Source: Promethearchaeota archaeon (GTDB taxonomy: Archaea > Asgardarchaeota > Lokiarchaeia > Sigyniarchaeales > SOKP01). From it: a DNA stretch of 12,841 nt. Made by a program: the position numbers and the translations under genes. The stretch covers positions 1-12,841 of the forward strand of contig JBHLOC010000075.1 of assembly GCA_048940925.1 (NCBI GenBank), read 5' to 3'. Positions within the stretch are counted from its first letter, which is position 1; each line of letters starts with the position of its first letter. Shown piece after piece: positions 1,025-10,635 of this stretch. The notes under the pieces were generated by a model. The model made no database searches, was not told the DNA's origin, and saw only the letters and a program-made list of their open reading frames with translations.

Positions 1025-2248
1025 ATGATCCAGTTGAATAGAGAAAAAGTCTTTATAATAACATCAATTGTATTAGGATCGGTAATTCTTTCATCTGCAC
1101 TAATTTCTTTTAATTTATACTTTAAGGATGATTCAGAGGGTTCTTTATCTTATGACTTACCAAACTATATCCACATAAATAACAATTGGTCACAGACAGC
1201 ATCATATTATGCTTGGTGTAAAGGTGGAAGTGGTACAGTAAATAATCCATACATTATTGAAAATATAGTTGTTGAGAGTGATAATGAAATAGCTTGCATA
1301 TTTATAGAGAATTCAAATAGACATTTCATTATAAGAAACTGTAAATTTAGGAATTCAAATTCTATTGGTATATATTTATCCCATATAACCAATGGAAAAT
1401 TAATTGATAATGAATGCTCTTTTAATCGTGAATATGGAATTTATTTGGATCATTGCAATAATATAGAAGTTAGCGGGAATACCATGAAATCGAATTTTGG
1501 TGCTGGACTATATCTACACGTTAGTGACTATAATACAATAGTAAATAATAATATCAATTACAACCGCGATGGTATAGCATTAATCTTAAGCAGTAATAAT
1601 TTTATTCAAGAAAATATGGTAAATAATAATGATAATGACGCATTAGGTTTTTGGCTTGAATCAAGTAATAATAGAATTGAAAATAACTCATTTAGTTATA
1701 ACGGTCGTGGGGTATATACTGAAGAAGGAGGTATTTATAATATTTTTATAGGAAATAACGCAAGTAGTAATAAACGTGAGGGATTTGATATTGATGATCA
1801 ATATAACATAGTTAGTCAAAATATTGCTAATTTTAATGGTTGGTATGGAATAAGCATTAGTTTTGGAGATAATTGTTCTATAATAAATAATACTGCTAAT
1901 TCTAATGGTATTCATGGAATAAAGATATCTTATAGTAATTTGAATGAAGTTAATTATAACAGAGTATTATTCAATAATAATTCAGGAATATGCCTTAGAG
2001 GGGCTGATAATTGCCTAGTTGAAGAAAATGTAGTAGAATATAATGGAAATAATGGTATTTTACTGATTAAGGCTGAATATAATCGATTAATTCGAAATCA
2101 TATAAAAAATAATACTTATGGTGTTAAGTTGGAAGATGAGTCAAGCAATAATGAAATTGTAGAAAATCTGTTAATTAATAATGAAATTTGTTACTTTGAA
2201 GAGATAACGTGTTTTGATAATATTTTCATCAGTAATGTTTGTTTGTAG
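1025..2248 (+). CDS. Membrane-anchored parallel beta-helix (NosD/CASH/PbH1 repeat) protein
   Basis: N-terminal hydrophobic segment (VFIITSIVLGSVILSSALISF), GSGTVNNPYIIEN motif, and many Asn-rich repeats of about 22 aa (GIYL..CNNIEVSGN, GIALILSSNNFIQEN, GICLRGADNCLVEEN). Confidence 0.88.
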   Translation: MIQLNREKVFIITSIVLGSVILSSALISFNLYFKDDSEGSLSYDLPNYIHINNNWSQTASYYAWCKGGSGTVNNPYIIENIVVESDNEIACIFIENSNRHFIIRNCKFRNSNSIGIYLSHITNGKLIDNECSFNREYGIYLDHCNNIEVSGNTMKSNFGAGLYLHVSDYNTIVNNNINYNRDGIALILSSNNFIQENMVNNNDNDALGFWLESSNNRIENNSFSYNGRGVYTEEGGIYNIFIGNNASSNKREGFDIDDQYNIVSQNIANFNGWYGISISFGDNCSIINNTANSNGIHGIKISYSNLNEVNYNRVLFNNNSGICLRGADNCLVEENVVEYNGNNGILLIKAEYNRLIRNHIKNNTYGVKLEDESSNNEIVENLLINNEICYFEEITCFDNIFISNVCL

Positions 2249-2285
2249 TGTAATAATTGCCAATAAATTGAAATAAGGAAGAAAT

Positions 2286-3902
2286 ATGAATATAAAAATT
2301 AAATCAAATTCAAAAAAAAAAAATATTGTTTGTGTTTTTTATTTATTATTATTATCATTTACTCTAAATAAAGTTGAAAACAGATATTTAATTGAAGATA
2401 GTTTCGAAGTAATAAAACCAATTGTGGGTAATGGTGACTCTGAAGGTCAAGAATGGGTTTCTTCTTATAATGAACATTACACTTATGGAAAATGTCTTGC
2501 TTTAGATTCTGATCAAAATGTAATAGTTGGAACTTCCACTTTAAGTGGATTTACTGTAGTTAAATATAATAATTTAGGAACCAAATTATGGGAAACTAAT
2601 TATTATAGACTTTGGGATTTTTTTAGAATAGAAGATATAGGAATCGATTCATCAGATAATATCTATGTTGCAGGAAGAGCTTTAGGAGAAATGATTGGAT
2701 GGGATCCTATTTACTTCTTGATTAAATTTAACCAATCTGGTTCATTAGAATGGGAACAAATGGGTTCTGAAGGTGAGTATAGTATTGGAAAAACACTTGT
2801 AGTAGATTCATCTGATAGAATTTATATTGGTATTTTAGATAAAAAATATAATGAATCTGATATTGTTTTGATGAAGTATAACAATTCTGGTGATATAAAC
2901 GGAATCTATAGGTGGGGAGGAAATAATGAAGATTATGTAGTTGATCTTGCAATAGATTCACTAGATAATATTTATGTTCTTGGTTATACAAATGAGACTA
3001 TAGGAGGAAATTATAATTTGGTTCTATTAAAATATAATGGATCTGGAAATTTATTATGGAATGTCACATGGGGTGGACCAAATGATGTTTATGGATTAGA
3101 ATTGCTCTTAGATTCTTCAGAGCAAATAAATGTTTTGGGATCCATAGTAGTAGATAAAAAAGAATTCAGTTTTTTATTAAAATATAATGTCTTTGGAGTC
3201 TTACTATGGAATAAAACATTCTATAATGATAAATATATTCATTTTACTTTAGATTCATTTGATAATTTTTACTTTGCACAAAATGGAGAATATTTTGAAG
3301 ATATGGGAACTGATATCTATTTAGCTATGTACAATAATACTGTGAATTTCCAATGGGATTTATTGTGGGGTGGTGAATTAGATGATTCCTTCAATGCGAT
3401 AACTACAGACCCAAATGATAATCTATATTTAACAGGGTATACAAGAAATTCAATGATATTAGTTAAAAATCCAACAGATAAGACTCTTTATTCCCCTCCA
3501 GGAATTTTTACATTAAACTCAAGCGCGTCTTATGCTAATAATACCGTTAATTTAATATGGACTGATTCTAGAGGCGCTGAAAATTATTCTATTTATACTT
3601 ATAATGATTACTTTAGGGACATCAATAATTCATCTAATTTAATAACAGAAGGTATTTTCAATAATAATTATTCAATTTCAGGATTACAAGATGGAGTGCA
3701 TTTTTTTATTGTGACTGCGCATAATAGAAACGGATATACTGTTTCAAATTGCATATATGTAATTATAGGTGAACAAATTGAAGAAAACGAGAATAAAACC
3801 ATGGAATTCTACCTTCTTTTAGCTATCTTCATGGGAATTGGGATAATTTATGTAGTTAGTTTTACGATCATCTATCGTAAATTCTTCCTAAAATTCACAT
3901 AA
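2286..3902 (+). CDS. Surface protein: SBBP-like beta-propeller repeats, fibronectin-III-like domain and C-terminal transmembrane anchor
   Basis: Signal-like N-terminus; repeated blades (IDSSDNIYVAG, AIDSLDNIYVLGYT, LLKYNGSGNLLWNVTWGG, TDPNDNLYLTGYT); FN3-like segment (LIWTDSRGAENYSIY...YSISGLQDGVHFFIVTAHNRNG); C-terminal TM helix followed by basic residues. Confidence 0.85.
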   Translation: MNIKIKSNSKKKNIVCVFYLLLLSFTLNKVENRYLIEDSFEVIKPIVGNGDSEGQEWVSSYNEHYTYGKCLALDSDQNVIVGTSTLSGFTVVKYNNLGTKLWETNYYRLWDFFRIEDIGIDSSDNIYVAGRALGEMIGWDPIYFLIKFNQSGSLEWEQMGSEGEYSIGKTLVVDSSDRIYIGILDKKYNESDIVLMKYNNSGDINGIYRWGGNNEDYVVDLAIDSLDNIYVLGYTNETIGGNYNLVLLKYNGSGNLLWNVTWGGPNDVYGLELLLDSSEQINVLGSIVVDKKEFSFLLKYNVFGVLLWNKTFYNDKYIHFTLDSFDNFYFAQNGEYFEDMGTDIYLAMYNNTVNFQWDLLWGGELDDSFNAITTDPNDNLYLTGYTRNSMILVKNPTDKTLYSPPGIFTLNSSASYANNTVNLIWTDSRGAENYSIYTYNDYFRDINNSSNLITEGIFNNNYSISGLQDGVHFFIVTAHNRNGYTVSNCIYVIIGEQIEENENKTMEFYLLLAIFMGIGIIYVVSFTIIYRKFFLKFT

Positions 3903-4142: not shown

Positions 4143-6161
4143 ATGAGCGACGATAGAAAAAAATTGTGGGAACCATCAGATGAATGGATTAAAAGTGTAG
4201 AAGCGACTCATTTTATTGAATTTGTAAATAAGAATTATGGATCGAATATTAAAGGAGGAAAAGATCTTTATAAATGGTCTGTAGAACAAATACCAGATTT
4301 CTGGGATGCCATGTGGAAGTTTTCAGGTATTATTGCTTCTAAACCATATGATAAAGTAGTTGAAGACTTGAGTGTATTTCCTGGAACAAAATGGTTTCCT
4401 GGGGCAAAAATGAATTTCGCTGAAAATCTTCTTAAGTATAAAGACGATCAATTAGCTTTTATATTTCAGGGTGAGACTAAGGTATCAAAACAAATAACTT
4501 ATGCTGAATTAAACAAAACTGTTGCTCGTTTGGCAAAATCTCTTAAAGATGTTGGAATAAAAGTAAATGATCGCGTTGTTTCATATATTCCAAACTTAAT
4601 TGAAACACCTACGGCAATGCTCGCAACTACTGCTATTGGGGCAATTTGGGCTTCTTGTGGTGCTGAACTTCAGCCAAGTGCGGTTATCGACAGATTTGGT
4701 CAAATTGAACCTAAATTACTTTTTACTGTTGATGGATATTACTATAGAGATAAAGTGTTTGATATTAGAGATAACGTCAAAACGGTTGTAGAGGCTATTC
4801 CTTCAATAGAAAAAGTTGTTATTGTTTCTTACATCTCTGATGGTAAAGCAGATGTTAGTGGTATTCCTAAAGCTCAAAACTGGGAAGATTTCATTTCAAA
4901 AGAAGAAGAACCTAAATTGGAATTTGTACAATTACCTTTTGATCATCCCATCTATATAATGTTCTCTTCAGGAACGACTGGAAAACCAAAATGCATGGTT
5001 CAAAGTGGTGGAGGAGTTCTTATCAATCATTTAAAAGAACTAATTCTCTCCACTGATTGCAAAAGGAGTGATGTTATAAATTATATCACTGCGCCCTCAT
5101 GGATGATGGTTTAAGTATTCCTTATACCAGCCAAAATGTGGAACTGGCTTATCAGTGCCTTAGCCGTGGGCGCAACAATATTCTTATATGACGGAAATCC
5201 ACTATACCCAGATCCATTAAGCTTTTTTGAATTGATTGAAAAGCATAAAATCTCGATATTTGGGACTAGTGCAGCATATATCCATTATTTAATGGGTCTT
5301 GGTGTTAAACCAGGTGAGAAATATAATCTTAGTGCTTTAAGGGAAATATCACAAACAGCATCAACTCTTTCTCCAGAAGGTTTTGAATACGTTTATCATG
5401 AAATTAAGAAAGATCTCTTTTTCAATTCTATTAGTGGTGGAACAGATATCAATGGATGCTTTGCAGGAGCAATTCCAATTCTTCCTGTTTATTCGGGTGA
5501 ATTACAAGGGCGTGCATTAGGAATGAAAGTAGAAGCTTATAATGATAATGCAGAACCCGTTGAAGATGAACAAGCTGAGCTTGTGTGTGAAGCTCCTGCT
5601 CCTTCAATGCCAGTATATTTTTGGGGAGATGATGATAATATGACAAAATATAAGGCTGCTTATTTTGATCACTTTAAGGATAAAGGAAAGAATATATGGA
5701 GGCATGGTGATTATATAGTAATTCATAGCGATACTGGAGGAATAACTTTCTGGGGTCGTTCTGATGCAGTTTTAAAACCTTCAGGTGTAAGAATTGGTAC
5801 TGCTGAAATCTATAATGTAGTGGAACAACTTCCTGAAATCTCAGATTCATTGGTAATCGGTCAACAATGGGAAGGTGATATTCGTATTGTTATGTTTGTC
5901 CTATTAAATGAAGGTTATGAATTAACAGATGAGCTAAAAACAAAAATACAACAAACAATTCGAGAAAAGACAAGTCCACGACATGTACCAAAGTTAATAT
6001 ATGCTGCACCAACTGATGGGATTCCTTACACTTTTAGTAATAAGAAAGTTGAAATTGCTGTGACTAAAATTATACATGGTATAGAAGTAACTAATCGTGG
6101 TGCTCTAAGAAACCCAGAATCTCTGGATTTCTACATGGAAATGAAGGATAAACTTAAATAA
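4143..6161 (+). CDS. acsA: Acetoacetate--CoA ligase (acetoacetyl-CoA synthetase), interrupted; proposed join(4143..5105,5136..6161), 662 aa
   Basis: The ORFs ending at 5114 and starting at 5136 are in the same frame. Likely start is ATG 4143 (MSDDRKKLWEPS). Family motifs: WFPGAKMNFAENLL, YIMFSSGTTGKPK, WM-MWNWL, ISGGTDINGCF, WRHGD, GRSDAVLKPSGVRIGTAEIY, SPRHVP, PYTFSNKKVE. The only visible lesion is the 30-nt insert. Confidence 0.92.
5106..5135 (+). other. Candidate 30-nt bulge-helix-bulge (BHB) mRNA intron
   Basis: ATGGTTTAAGTATTCCTTATACCAGCCAAA contains an in-frame TAA (5112-5114), and its removal gives TGG ATG|ATG TGG AAC TGG (WMMWNW). Manual fold: exon helix 5095-5099/5137-5141, central helix UGGA 5100-5103/GCCA 5130-5133, bulges UGA 5104-5106 and AAA 5134-5136, intron stem 5107-5115/5121-5129. 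Confidence 0.72.
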
Positions 6162-6169
6162 AAAAAATT

Positions 6170-7279
6170 CTAATTCTTTTTTTTTAATTTAAAACATTTT
6201 CTTTTTCTATATAAGCTATCTTCATAATTAGTAAGCATTTCTCGCATTAGATCCATCCCAAGATAGATATTATAACCGATTCCTTCCCATTCACTATTAG
6301 TTTGCCAAATTTTATAGGTTATTTTAAAATAACATTTAACTTGTTGGATAAAATTAATGCTTCCAGACGTGATTACAGTTGATCCTACCTTACCATCACC
6401 ATCATAGTATCCTAAAATAAAAGCTAAATACAGTTCTCTCGAGGCTAATCTTGGTAATTCAATAAATTTGGATTTTTGATTTCCAACTATAAAACCATGT
6501 TTAATTAAACTATTTGCAAATTCGTCATTGACAAACCGAATCCTCACATAATCAGTTAAATCTCCTTCTCTTCTAATTTCAATTTCTTTATGTTCAAGAT
6601 TAAAACCAATGACATTAGCAAATTTATCTAATAAATCTTTCTCATCATCTTTATGCAATTCAACCCCAAATCTGATATTATTTCCATGTTTAGAAAGCCA
6701 AGCTTCTGCGAATAACCATCCTAACCAATAAGCCTTTTCTTTAGTATCAATATATTCGAAATAATCAATTTTTAAGCAAGGATGCCATCTATATATGCCG
6801 TATATCGATTTCTTTGGGTTATTTAAAATTATATATTTACTAAATAACTCAGAGATTTCTCTAGGGACTCTGCATAAATTTTTATTGATTTGAGATTTAT
6901 ACTCTTTAAGCGTTTCAATAGAAATTATGTAATTTGGATCTTGCTTTATCTGATCTTTCTTTTTTTTAATATGAAATCTTGTTTGCCCTAGAACAATACT
7001 TAATTGTTCATCTGTTAATTTACTATTCAATAATCTTTTTTCTGGAATATATTTAGCAATAACTCTTTTTAATTCATATATGAAGCTTAATGTATTATAT
7101 CTATTAGAGTTTATCGAAAATGTATTAAAATTGTTATCTAAATCTTTATAATTATAATTAATATCAATTTTTTTTTTAAAATAGGCTAAATTTTCACTAT
7201 TAGAACACTTTTTTTTAATCTTGTGATTTTGTAAGTAATACAAGTCATCAATTCTTATAATGGATTTGTTTTTAACCAT
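6170..7279 (-). CDS. Free-standing LAGLIDADG-family homing endonuclease-like protein with N-terminal extension
   Basis: YFEYIDTKEKAYWLGWLFAEAWLS (motif 1) and LYLAFILGYYDGDGKV (motif 2), separated by about 100 aa that include LIKHGFIVGNQKS. No intein or intron context is visible. The true start is uncertain. Confidence 0.85.
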   Translation of the reverse strand: MVKNKSIIRIDDLYYLQNHKIKKKCSNSENLAYFKKKIDINYNYKDLDNNFNTFSINSNRYNTLSFIYELKRVIAKYIPEKRLLNSKLTDEQLSIVLGQTRFHIKKKKDQIKQDPNYIISIETLKEYKSQINKNLCRVPREISELFSKYIILNNPKKSIYGIYRWHPCLKIDYFEYIDTKEKAYWLGWLFAEAWLSKHGNNIRFGVELHKDDEKDLLDKFANVIGFNLEHKEIEIRREGDLTDYVRIRFVNDEFANSLIKHGFIVGNQKSKFIELPRLASRELYLAFILGYYDGDGKVGSTVITSGSINFIQQVKCYFKITYKIWQTNSEWEGIGYNIYLGMDLMREMLTNYEDSLYRKRKCFKLKKKN

Positions 7280-7775
7280 AATTGAAGTCTCAAAGAATTT
7301 TTAGTTAATTTTATAAAATTGCAATATGTAAAACGAATATGTTTTTATCTTTATTAATCTTAATAGAGTTAGGATTTTGTCTTTATAATTAGTTAAAAAT
7401 TCTTTATTTTAATTTAAAAATTCAAAAATTAAATTATAATTTTTTTTGGAATACAACCTTAAATATCAAATAAATTTATCGTCTAAAGTGTAAATTCATT
7501 ATTTTTGAATTTAAATAGTAATATGGACTTAAGGATAACCTGTTTTGAAACCGAAGAATTTGTCTGCTATATTTGAATTAAATTTATTAATTTGAATCTA
7601 ATATAATTCTGGAATGAATAAATTCAAATTTTTGGAATTATTTGAATGAAAGTTATTTTAAGAAGGAAAGCTTCAATAATTTTTTTTCCTTTTTTTCCAT
7701 TAAAAACCTTATTAGGCATTACATCATTAGTCTTTAGCGATTCTATTTTATGTGATGATGAGCATATTGTTTTAA

Positions 7776-8284: not shown

Positions 8285-8782
8285 CTAAACTAATTTTATA
8301 ACTTGAGCAAATAGCGTATTGAATTGAAAACGATTAGATATACTCGAACCACGGATTATAATTCGTATCACATGAGTACCTACAAGTGAATTATTAACCA
8401 TTTGGAGCGTAATCGATACTCTCGAAGCATATGTAGCATCAGGGTTATGGGATGATACACTTGGAGTTGTAATTAATACATTGTCGATTTCAAAATAGAC
8501 TGTTACAAAGGTTTGTGGTTCTACGAAAGCATCTCCAGAATATTGGACGTAAAGAGCTTCTTCGGCCGAAATAGAGACACTTAATTCTAAGGTACTAACG
8601 GAGATGTAATCATAGGCGGGATCAGTGTATAAAAATGTATCGTTTTTAATGTACCACGATTTTGGAGCAGAATTTGGTTTAGATTGAGAAAAAAATATAG
8701 TATAAAGACCTAATCCTAATCCTATAACTCCTACCAAGAGTGCTATAATGCTTAATCCTCGTCCTGATTTTCGAGTATTCAT
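8285..8782 (-). CDS. Hypothetical membrane-anchored protein (N-terminal TM helix, beta-rich ectodomain)
   Basis: 165-aa ORF with LSIIALLVGVIGLGLGLYTIFF as TM helix, followed by an alternating beta-strand pattern (LELSVSI, VTVYFEIDN, GTHVIRIIIRG). Confidence 0.8.
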   Translation of the reverse strand: MNTRKSGRGLSIIALLVGVIGLGLGLYTIFFSQSKPNSAPKSWYIKNDTFLYTDPAYDYISVSTLELSVSISAEEALYVQYSGDAFVEPQTFVTVYFEIDNVLITTPSVSSHNPDATYASRVSITLQMVNNSLVGTHVIRIIIRGSSISNRFQFNTLFAQVIKLV

Positions 8783-9237: not shown

Positions 9238-9369
9238 TTAGGTCAATTTTATCCATAATTTTAAATAGAATTTAAATATTTCATTTCGGTTACAATAATA
9301 TATTAATGCATTTTGTAAAATAATTTAGATTTTTTATTTTAAATAATTTTTTATTATAAATCTTTCGAT

Positions 9370-9510
9370 ATTCTTTATACATTTTCTAATAAGAAGGTCG
9401 AAATCGTGGTAACAAAAATCATCCACGGGAGGGAAGTAACTAATCGTGGCGCTCTTAGAAACCCAGAATCTTTAGATTACTACATGGAGATGAAAGATAA
9501 ACTTAAATAA
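9370..9510 (+). repeat. Second copy of the acetoacetate--CoA ligase 3' end (46 codons plus stop; corresponds to 6021-6161)
   Basis: Translates as ILYTFSNKKVEIVVTKIIHGREVTNRGALRNPESLDYYMEMKDKLK*. By hand, 42/46 aa are identical, with 17 synonymous and 4 non-synonymous codon differences. No start codon or upstream homology. Confidence 0.95.
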
Positions 9511-9584
9511 ATCAAAATTTTAAAAATTTTTTTTATAATTTTAGAATAGTCGATCTTACCTTTACAAGTAAATAATTCAAGATA

Positions 9585-9759
9585 TTAATGAATGTTTATG
9601 CATTTGGCTAAGCATCGGTTCACACATGCATTACAATTTATACATTTTTTTTGGCTGATTTATCTGAACCTTCTTATCTCGTTCATTAAAAAGATAAATT
9701 CCTCGAGGACACACGTCAATACAAACCTTACAACCAATACACTCTTCACGATTTACGAA
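9585..9759 (-). pseudogene. 2x[4Fe-4S] ferredoxin-type domain remnant (5'-truncated, frameshifted)
   Basis: Minus strand reads FVNREECIGCKVCIDVCPRGIYLFNERDKKVQINQP, then one extra base in the T8 run at 9645-9652, then KKCINCNACVNRCLAKCINIH*. Two CxxCxxCxxxC motifs; no in-frame start. Confidence 0.85.
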
Positions 9760-9879
9760 AAGTACAAAGATGGGGAATCTTTAAGAGAGCATCTTGATCA
9801 AGTACCGAAAACGCATGCAAAGTTAATGCCACTTTTAGAGCCAGGGCAAGAATTAAAGAAATGTTATGAAATATTATAA
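9751..9879 (+). pseudogene. C-terminal fragment resembling an ABM/putative quinol monooxygenase domain
   Basis: IYEKYKDGESLREHLDQVPKTHAKLMPLLEPGQELKKCYEIL* resembles the YExY/W...H C-terminal half of ABM domains, and it ends just before the SCP2-like gene. The N-terminal half is replaced by antisense ferredoxin sequence. Confidence 0.5.
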
Positions 9880-9886
9880 AAAAAAT

Positions 9887-10309
9887 ATGGAGGGGATAAA
9901 ATTAACAGCAGAAAATTATGTTGACAAAAGAAAAAGATTTTACGAATCATTAAATAACAATAATAAGTTTAAAGAAAAATTTAAAGATGAAAAATTTAAA
10001 ATTCTCTTAAATCCAAAGGATGGTAAATACGCAGCATTAATTATTGTTGAAAAAGGTACCGTTTCAGTTGAGAAGTTACCGAATTATCCTATAAGTAATT
10101 TTGATGAAAATATCTTAGGATGGGATGCCATGATGCAAACAACGTTAGAAATATTTGACGAAATTGGACAAGGAAAACTCTCAACTAGTGCTATAATGAA
10201 AAAGGTACTTATGCGTAAAATTAAAATGAAAAATCCTATCCTCCTACTTAAACTCAACGAAAACGATGAATTATTAAAAGAAGAAGGAAAAAATTCTTTA
10301 CTTCTTTAA
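9887..10309 (+). CDS. SCP2 sterol/lipid-binding-domain-like protein
   Basis: FYESLNNNNKFKEKF...ILLNPKDGKYAALIIVEKGTVSV...WDAMMQTTLEIFDEIGQGKLS...KVLMRKIKMKNPILLLKL fits the SCP2 fold pattern. ATG 9887 is preferred; ATG 9866 is the alternative. Confidence 0.7.
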   Translation: MEGIKLTAENYVDKRKRFYESLNNNNKFKEKFKDEKFKILLNPKDGKYAALIIVEKGTVSVEKLPNYPISNFDENILGWDAMMQTTLEIFDEIGQGKLSTSAIMKKVLMRKIKMKNPILLLKLNENDELLKEEGKNSLLL

Positions 10310-10380
10310 ATTATATTTTTAGCTGAAAAAAAAATTATTAAATAGAACTATTAAAAAGACTTTTTCTTCCTTAATTTTTA

Positions 10381-10635
10381 CTTATAAATGAAGATTATGA
10401 ATTAAATGATGAATTAAAGACAAAAATTCGGCAATCTCTACTTGAGAAGACCTTCCCAAGACATGTTCCAAAGCTTATCTACGCAACTCCACCTGACGGC
10501 ATTCCATATACCTTCAGTGATAAAAAGGTCGAAATTACAGTCACTAAAATCATCTACAGCATGGAAGTCAACCGCGGTGGCCTTAGAAACCTAAAATCGC
10601 TAGACTTCTGCATGGAAATGAAGGATAAACTTTAA
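10381..10635 (+). repeat. Third, more decayed copy of the acetoacetate--CoA ligase 3' end (84 codons plus stop; corresponds to 5901-6158)
   Basis: LINEDYELNDELKTKIRQSLLEKTFPRHVPKLIYATPPDGIPYTFSDKKVEITVTKIIYSMEV-NRGGLRNLKSLDFCMEMKDKL*. By hand, 65/84 aa are identical with one codon deleted. 22 nt are identical at the end (6134-6155 = 10611-10632). Confidence 0.95.

Follow-up and report, generated by a model that had tools for sequence, protein, structure and literature searches.

The stretch of DNA considered here (the window, 12,841 nucleotides, equal to contig C17 of the source genome G000) belongs to a member of the Promethearchaeota, class Lokiarchaeia, with an assembly of 4.8 Mb and 30% GC. 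In the following, C with a number denotes contigs of this genome and L with a number the loci or alleles that we compared. The window contains an acetoacetate-CoA ligase gene on the forward strand (4143-6161), which is interrupted by an insert of 30 nt, and the gene of a LAGLIDADG endonuclease on the reverse strand (6170-7279). The two genes are convergent; the stop codon of the ligase ends at 6161, leaving a gap of 8 bp, and 1035 bp lie between the insert (5106-5135) and the stop codon of the nuclease. The sequence thereby bears out the anatomy given in the original prediction, namely a two-motif LAGLIDADG open reading frame (ORF) placed convergently 8 bp from the ligase stop and about 1 kb from a 30-nt insert devoid of an ORF.

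In the NCBIfam models PRK03584/TIGR01217 the two ligase pieces align to one half each, in succession. Exon 1 (4143-5105, +) comprises codons 1-321 and ends with PSWM, and exon 2 extends from 5136 to 6161 (+). When the ORF-less 30 nt between them (5106-5135, +), which contain an in-frame TAA, are taken out, an open, stop-free acetoacetate-CoA ligase frame of 662 aa results. The region of the insert is predicted to fold into an exon helix, an internal loop and an intron hairpin and conforms to a relaxed bulge-helix-bulge (BHB) motif with two 3-nt bulges, cuts that restore the frame and a 4-bp central helix, in which three of the four positions are paired and an A.G mismatch occupies the other, an invariant arrangement. 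We found the insert at the identical place in 33 distinct alleles, every one of which has an in-frame stop codon and an open frame after removal. Across 29 distinct junctions pairing is present in 96.6% of the cells, compared with 33-45% in slid controls; the three paired positions of the central helix are invariant among them and five of the nine pairs of the intron stem show a two-sided compensatory change. The insert of allele L148 begins with ATT instead of ATG, which fixes the register at 5106. The source genome encodes two EndA paralogues, on contigs C58 and C18, and RtcB, the host machinery for introns of this kind. The 30-nt insert is very probably a BHB intron, the splicing of which we infer from its structure and conservation.

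The nuclease (6170-7279, -) is a free-standing protein of 369 aa. Pfam by itself gives a weak match below the cut-off (PF14528, E = 1e-3), and a profile of the nuclease family picks up two homing endonucleases, an I-DmoI/I-CreI chimera and 2dch. The predicted structure has a pLDDT of 82, with the first 58 residues being of low confidence, and the best 50 rows of a Foldseek search with this model are all LAGLIDADG-type homing enzymes or maturases (probability 1.0). Motif 1 (residues 183-193, LGWLFAE192; 6701-6733, -) aligns to the first catalytic helix of I-DmoI and its acidic residue E192 is invariant in the close clade of homologues; motif 2 (residues 286-296, LGYYDGD295G; 6392-6424, -) aligns to the second helix and its acidic residue D295 is invariant in 41 homologues. 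Two helices with acidic residues and a LAGLIDADG fold place the protein among the double-motif LAGLIDADG enzymes. In front of this core the model has confident helices in an all-helical N-terminal domain (residues ~62-165; 6785-7096, -), for which no confident family was found, helix-turn-helix-like leads being weak (TM < 0.5); the modelled domain is possibly an accessory DNA-binding domain. The core is under purifying selection, as dN/dS is 0.07-0.15 in eight pairs. An intron-encoded enzyme of the I-DmoI type was ruled out, the intron being only 30 nt long and the nuclease ORF lying 1035 bp away.

Homologues of the nuclease fall into a close clade with 56-87% identity and a broad family with 30-51% identity, and matches to the family occur in 83 of 161 genomes of the Lokiarchaeia class. 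A metagenome search yielded 21 loci with an alignment as query and none with the single protein; no relative of the nuclease was found in the viral contigs searched. At two loci (L139:2148-3941 and L062:5809-6741) a fusion form of 597 aa carries an unrelated region with Cys/His pairs at its N-terminus and is encoded upstream of the ligase, behind an ORF of 213-225 aa.

Every close-clade homologue that we fetched (at least 56% identity, about 20 distinct loci from genomes and metagenomes) adjoins this ligase or its stub. Wherever a full-length nuclease and the ligase junction are present on one contig, the insert is there as well (14/14 loci, 13 read as sequence and L110 by alignment length), and the upstream 597-aa nuclease of L062 and L139 is still paired with the intron. 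Five further intron-bearing loci (L026, L149, L150, L054 and L127) have a shortened, stopped or remnant nuclease. The intron is present in 21 of the class's 161 genomes and an uninterrupted site in 77, one genome having both; a full-length close nuclease is found in 4 of the 21 intron-bearing versus 0 of the 76 intron-less genomes (nominal Fisher P = 0.0017). Only three copies of the nuclease are located near intron-less alleles and all are damaged: L019 retains a remnant of 40 codons, the nuclease of L111 is stopped at residue 253 and adjoins a displaced ligase tail, and in L109 the first 118 residues have been lost at the junction with such a tail while both motifs are kept. Co-occurrence across genomes and the neighbourhoods of the closest homologues had been put forward as checks of the original prediction. 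In both respects the outcome favours a link between the two: intron and endonuclease are not distributed independently, and none of the close homologues fetched lies in an unrelated context. A second ligase-intron-nuclease unit of the source genome lies on contig C57 (~72100-78650), with a ligase 81% and a nuclease 83% identical to those of the window, an identical intron and three tails of its own. This unit may stem from a co-binned relative (bin contamination 8.4%), and we count it as a locus without claiming it as a paralogue.

In trees built from either the 5' half or the 3' half of the ligase, intron-bearing alleles turn up in scattered places, often beside intron-less sisters. Comparison of individual alleles reveals steps in identity at the intron. 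Between the window allele and L125 identity is 77% over codons 1-310 and 93% over codons 325-560, and between the window allele and L108 it changes from 83% before the intron to 92% after it; in L145 versus L113 the values are 77% and 95%. Steps in the opposite sense across the intron are seen for L024 versus the intron-less L084 (94% to 80%) and for L133 versus L069 (90% to 79%). With disjoint pairs that include an intron-bearing allele, strong steps fall at codons 295-345 in 5/12 cases (P = 0.003) and, when codons 309-340 are masked, still in 4/12 (P = 0.019). Intron-less disjoint pairs have a strong step there in 1/10 cases, and in 5/10 the breakpoint lies at codon 520 or later. On a finer scale, the intron-bearing alleles rise clearly above the background of synonymous identity only at codons 311-330 (0.66 and 0.78 versus 0.42 and 0.45), with no such peak at the 3' end.

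The polarity of these mosaics follows the position of the nuclease. With the nuclease downstream of the ligase the arm that appears to be imported is the 3' half, in the window exon 2 as judged from the steps to L125 and L108, and with the nuclease upstream the 3' half is of the recipient type. L124/L139, in which the nuclease is upstream, are 73% identical to the intron-less L061 up to the intron and 92% directly after it, with recipient-type codons from the first synonymous site onwards. Since L118 has no donor-type codons 5' of the intron and L124/L139 have no donor-type flank 3' of it, the exchange point is bracketed to the invariant Trp-Met-Met-Trp codons. The predicted target region is the uninterrupted PSW-M/M-WNW coding site, which in the window is split by the intron (5091-5147, +). 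Three intron-less alleles (L050, L053 and L055) have a donor-type 3' flank and belong to the same 3'-half clade as L113, L130, L144 and L145; they may have lost the intron or represent the lineage in which it arose.

Beyond the nuclease, the unit common to the nuclease loci extends upstream of the start codon for no more than about 160 bp. This upstream region (7280-7440, -) marks the far boundary of the shared unit: homology to C57, L023, L108, L113 and L144 ends at 7434-7446 and homology to L021 at 7398. The cargo beyond ~7440 was found at no other related locus, so the cargo appears merely to hitch-hike. Two displaced ligase 3' ends, recognized by homology, are situated in this part of the window, one at 9344-9511 (+, about codons 608-662) and one with a small deletion at 10367-10635 (+, about codons 575-661; tail 1/2 identity 72-81%). 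Of the three tails that had been listed before, these two are indeed displaced ends, and 6021-6161 is the functional 3' end of the gene. The tail of L145 is 92% identical to L044, the intron-less allele that comes closest to the 5' half of L145, and the working 3' end only 76%; likewise a comparison with 78 alleles gives, for the tails of L145, L133 and L149, a best match to the intron-less allele that is also closest to the 5' half. From these sequence matches the tails, where assignable, are displaced resident 3' ends. The two tails of the window have no match above 78% among the sampled alleles.

We consider it probable that the locus is a collaborative-homing unit on an archaeal chromosome, in which enzyme and intron spread together. 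In intron-less acetoacetate-CoA ligase alleles the WMMWNW-coding site, the codons of which are invariant, is uninterrupted, and it is here that the free-standing LAGLIDADG enzyme would cut. The 30-nt BHB intron would destroy this site in the DNA and, judging from its structure and conservation, be removed from the mRNA by EndA and RtcB, with which the host splices its tRNAs, so that the carrier would be immune and have a working ligase. Repair from a donor allele would then place the crossover on one side within a few codons of the intron and on the other side copy the 3' half of the ligase and continue through the nuclease into about 160 bp of the DNA that precedes it. The mosaic pattern is observed; its cause and the direction of transfer we infer. 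Sometimes the repair would also bring cargo and leave a stub of the old 3' end. Later the nuclease would decay or be lost and the intron persist, as in most intron-bearing alleles. A free-standing nuclease beside a gene with an ORF-less intron, the co-occurrence of the two with L109 as a partial exception, and an exchange boundary at the intron and towards the nuclease are what we find for such a unit. Adjacency had been regarded as the sole link between nuclease and intron; co-occurrence, the scatter of the intron and mosaic alleles with a switch at the intron have now been added.

Several points weigh against this interpretation. Cleavage of the target is deduced from genome comparison and splicing of 5106-5135 from sequence. 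L109 retains both catalytic motifs beside an intron-less allele, though its N-terminus and the native upstream DNA are gone, and 17 of the 21 intron-bearing genomes have no nuclease. The P values are overstated because genomes and loci are related by kinship. Part of the synonymous peak at codons 311-330 may be due to selection on RNA pairing, as an exon-exon stem between codons 316-318 and 332-334 is predicted in the conserved flanks, and for this reason we relied on the long-range identity steps. Over the whole set, congruence between nuclease and ligase is not significant: similarity of the nuclease and of the ligase 3' half gave r = 0.17 (P = 0.13) in a Mantel test, and none of the tests against each ligase quarter was significant. 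The relation between nuclease and intron similarity is marginal (r = 0.24, P = 0.053). This weak congruence, which is not support, suggests erosion by later recombination with older events being overwritten, or separate short conversions of the kind that C57 and L119 suggest.

That intron and nuclease are simply linked passively appears unlikely to us. They would have arisen once on one ligase haplotype and have been shuffled by ordinary recombination, the flanks being kept by the fold of the pre-mRNA and the enzyme cutting elsewhere or having another role. The stem predicted in the conserved flanks, the Mantel tests and the frequent recombination of the ligase even without a nuclease all agree with this explanation. 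It does not account, however, for the steps which persist after the local tract has been masked, for the flip of polarity with the position of the nuclease, for the nuclease still being tied to the ligase after switching sides, or for the damage to all three copies beside intron-less alleles. More doubtful still is homing at the end of the gene, independent of the intron, in which a cut in the 3' region of the ligase would import a recoded 3' end protected by synonymous changes and the intron would hitch-hike. The nuclease does abut the ligase stop codon, tails are more common at nuclease loci (5/9) than at intron-less, nuclease-free loci (6/30; intron-only loci 2/6), and L109 has a nuclease with an intact core next to an intron-less allele. 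Yet the intron-bearing alleles share no synonymous signature at the 3' end, at two loci the nuclease is upstream of the ligase, no full-length nuclease accompanies an intron-less allele, and breakpoints of nuclease-bearing alleles are at the intron whereas those at the 3' end mark nuclease-free pairs (5/10 at codon 520 or later). Breakpoints and recoding are thus not confined to the gene end, nor are duplicated ends tied to the nuclease. Tails at nuclease-free loci together with the late breakpoints of intron-less pairs indicate that capture at the 3' end of the ligase is general and constitutes a separate process.

The least probable explanation is that the insert is not spliced at all and protects the DNA site only, with the ribosome hopping from ATG to ATG as in T4 gene 60 or the ligase being made as two polypeptides. 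Matching ATG codons, a stop codon and a hairpin are present and the second half of the ligase has an ATG of its own, but the BHB register restores WMMWNW exactly, three central-helix pairs are invariant while the intron stem covaries, and the ATT of L148 stands in place of the take-off ATG and counts against the hop.

Returning to collaborative homing, the original prediction had left open two sites of cleavage and is upheld in one of its branches. Strong comparative support exists for the branch in which the intron-less WMMWNW site is the target and the intron protects it, from the co-occurrence, the scatter of the intron and the breakpoints at the intron. There is none for a cut in the 3' region with protection by synonymous recoding, given the lack of a 3' signature, the upstream nucleases and the tails at nuclease-free loci. 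Intron, new gene end and cargo were moreover expected to spread together; intron, 3' arm and nuclease appear to be exchanged, but the cargo is unshared and displaced ends also occur without the nuclease.

The best precedent is F-CphI, encoded beside the ORF-less group I intron of psbA in cyanophage S-PM2, for which collaborative homing with cleavage is described (Zeng, Bonocora and Shub 2009, as far as related in PMC6083498 and PMC3984707); collaborative homing is also known from T3/T7-like phages and the terminase of ICP1 (PMC10448857). As far as these accounts go, the psbA system shares with our locus a free-standing endonuclease whose neighbour gene has an ORF-less intron, as well as a target at the insertion site and immunity through the intron, both of which are predicted here. 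The differences are that the host is a cellular archaeal genome, that the enzyme is of the LAGLIDADG and not of the Endo VII, HNH or GIY-YIG type, that the 30-nt BHB intron would be spliced by proteins and is no ribozyme, and that the cleavage reported for F-CphI is deduced here. With the BHB introns of archaeal rRNA genes (I-DmoI, I-Tsp061I) our locus has in common the BHB intron and a double-motif LAGLIDADG enzyme, these enzymes being among the closest solved structures. Unlike in the I-DmoI type, the nuclease gene is not contained in the intron but lies on the other strand at a distance of 1 kb or, in two loci, upstream; the enzyme has an additional N-terminal helical domain, and the intron is in an mRNA. 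The cbf5 pre-mRNA intron of Crenarchaeota, a BHB intron of 16-44 nt removed by EndA with splicing demonstrated, has been called too short to encode a homing endonuclease (PMC2738675, 2009). It resembles the ligase intron as a short BHB intron in a protein-coding gene and differs in that the ligase intron is linked to a homing nuclease and its splicing is deduced. Endonuclease genes of fungal mitochondria (atp6, atp9, cox1; PMC7487136) likewise sit next to a host gene with a duplicated gene fragment, but the duplicated 3' ends seen here are not specific to the nuclease and the breakpoints are in the middle of the gene at the intron.

In the literature searched, which left out most subscription papers, we found no description of such a nuclease-intron pair in archaea, and archaeal mRNA splicing is confirmed there for cbf5 alone (PMC2738675). 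According to a recent preprint, Asgard tRNA introns were gained many times separately, and the arrival routes tested there give no general explanation; its text mentions neither 'homing' nor 'LAGLIDADG' (10.64898/2026.10.13.758758). The locus offers a testable mechanism with one enzyme, a target bracketed to a few codons and natural intron-less and intron-bearing alleles, and the nuclease that has moved to the other side of the ligase serves as a natural control. If this holds true, collaborative homing would not be confined to phages but would include cellular chromosomes and introns spliced by proteins, in those archaea that are most closely related to eukaryotes.

Other members of the nuclease family also have split neighbours. 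On contig C26 of the source genome (35047-36528) a LAGLIDADG paralogue of 494 aa precedes an rpoN-like gene (named from its sequence) that is split by a 31-nt hairpin insert in a relaxed BHB register. On C70 (~59600-61150) a further paralogue lies directly upstream of a gene with a 29-nt insert, the central helix of which has 4/4 pairs and the removal of which gives a continuous frame. Distant family members at L178 (near 1037) and L191/L008 (near 1510) are at most ~500 bp away from genes with homology-confirmed BHB-like inserts of 30 and 32 nt. The Lokiarchaeial free-standing LAGLIDADG family could consist of clades that are each specific to one neighbouring gene, with its conserved site and the BHB mini-intron there, and pairs of this kind would be a main route by which EndA-spliced introns get into protein-coding genes and spread among them in the nearest archaeal kin of eukaryotes, a generalization for and against which we see about equal weight. 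De novo BHB scans of the source genome and of the loci with distant nucleases were noisy, with control loci scoring at a similar rate, and did not show a general enrichment; the homology-based scan for inserts took source-genome proteins as reference, which limits its reach. Inserts of 30-34 nt are also present in a gene homologous to C18:23888-25072, which is located 3-6 kb upstream of the ligase in L032, L036, L042, L045, L051, L083 and L091. Several genomes have such inserts at one or two positions of this gene, and no member of the LAGLIDADG family is encoded nearby.

The ligase 3' end is a hotspot of cargo capture that does not depend on the nuclease: compared with the 6/30 intron-less loci that have a tail, tails occur in the source genome at only 15 of 2735 long ORFs (~0.5%), two of which are the ligases described here. 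Cargo genes between the new ligase end and a stub are present in the window (stubs at 9344-9511 and 10367-10635) and in L029, L040, L042, L043, L053, L060, L064 and L076. At nuclease-free tail loci the cargo comprises PIN or ParE toxins (toxin-antitoxin), a cold-shock protein, IF-1A and dehydrogenases. The window itself has as locus-specific cargo an ORF of 165 aa (8285-8782, -) without a Pfam or NCBIfam family, which is absent from all related loci compared. Between its two tails (9592-10309, +) there are overlapping small ORFs of 95 and 147 aa, again without a family, that have paralogues on C30, C22, C77 and C27. A sigma-70 promoter scan gave matches at chance level, with a model that does not suit archaea. 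Upstream of the ligase (1025-3902, +) a NosD/beta-helix protein and an SBBP beta-propeller protein are encoded, which are likely surface proteins with no relation to the homing unit.

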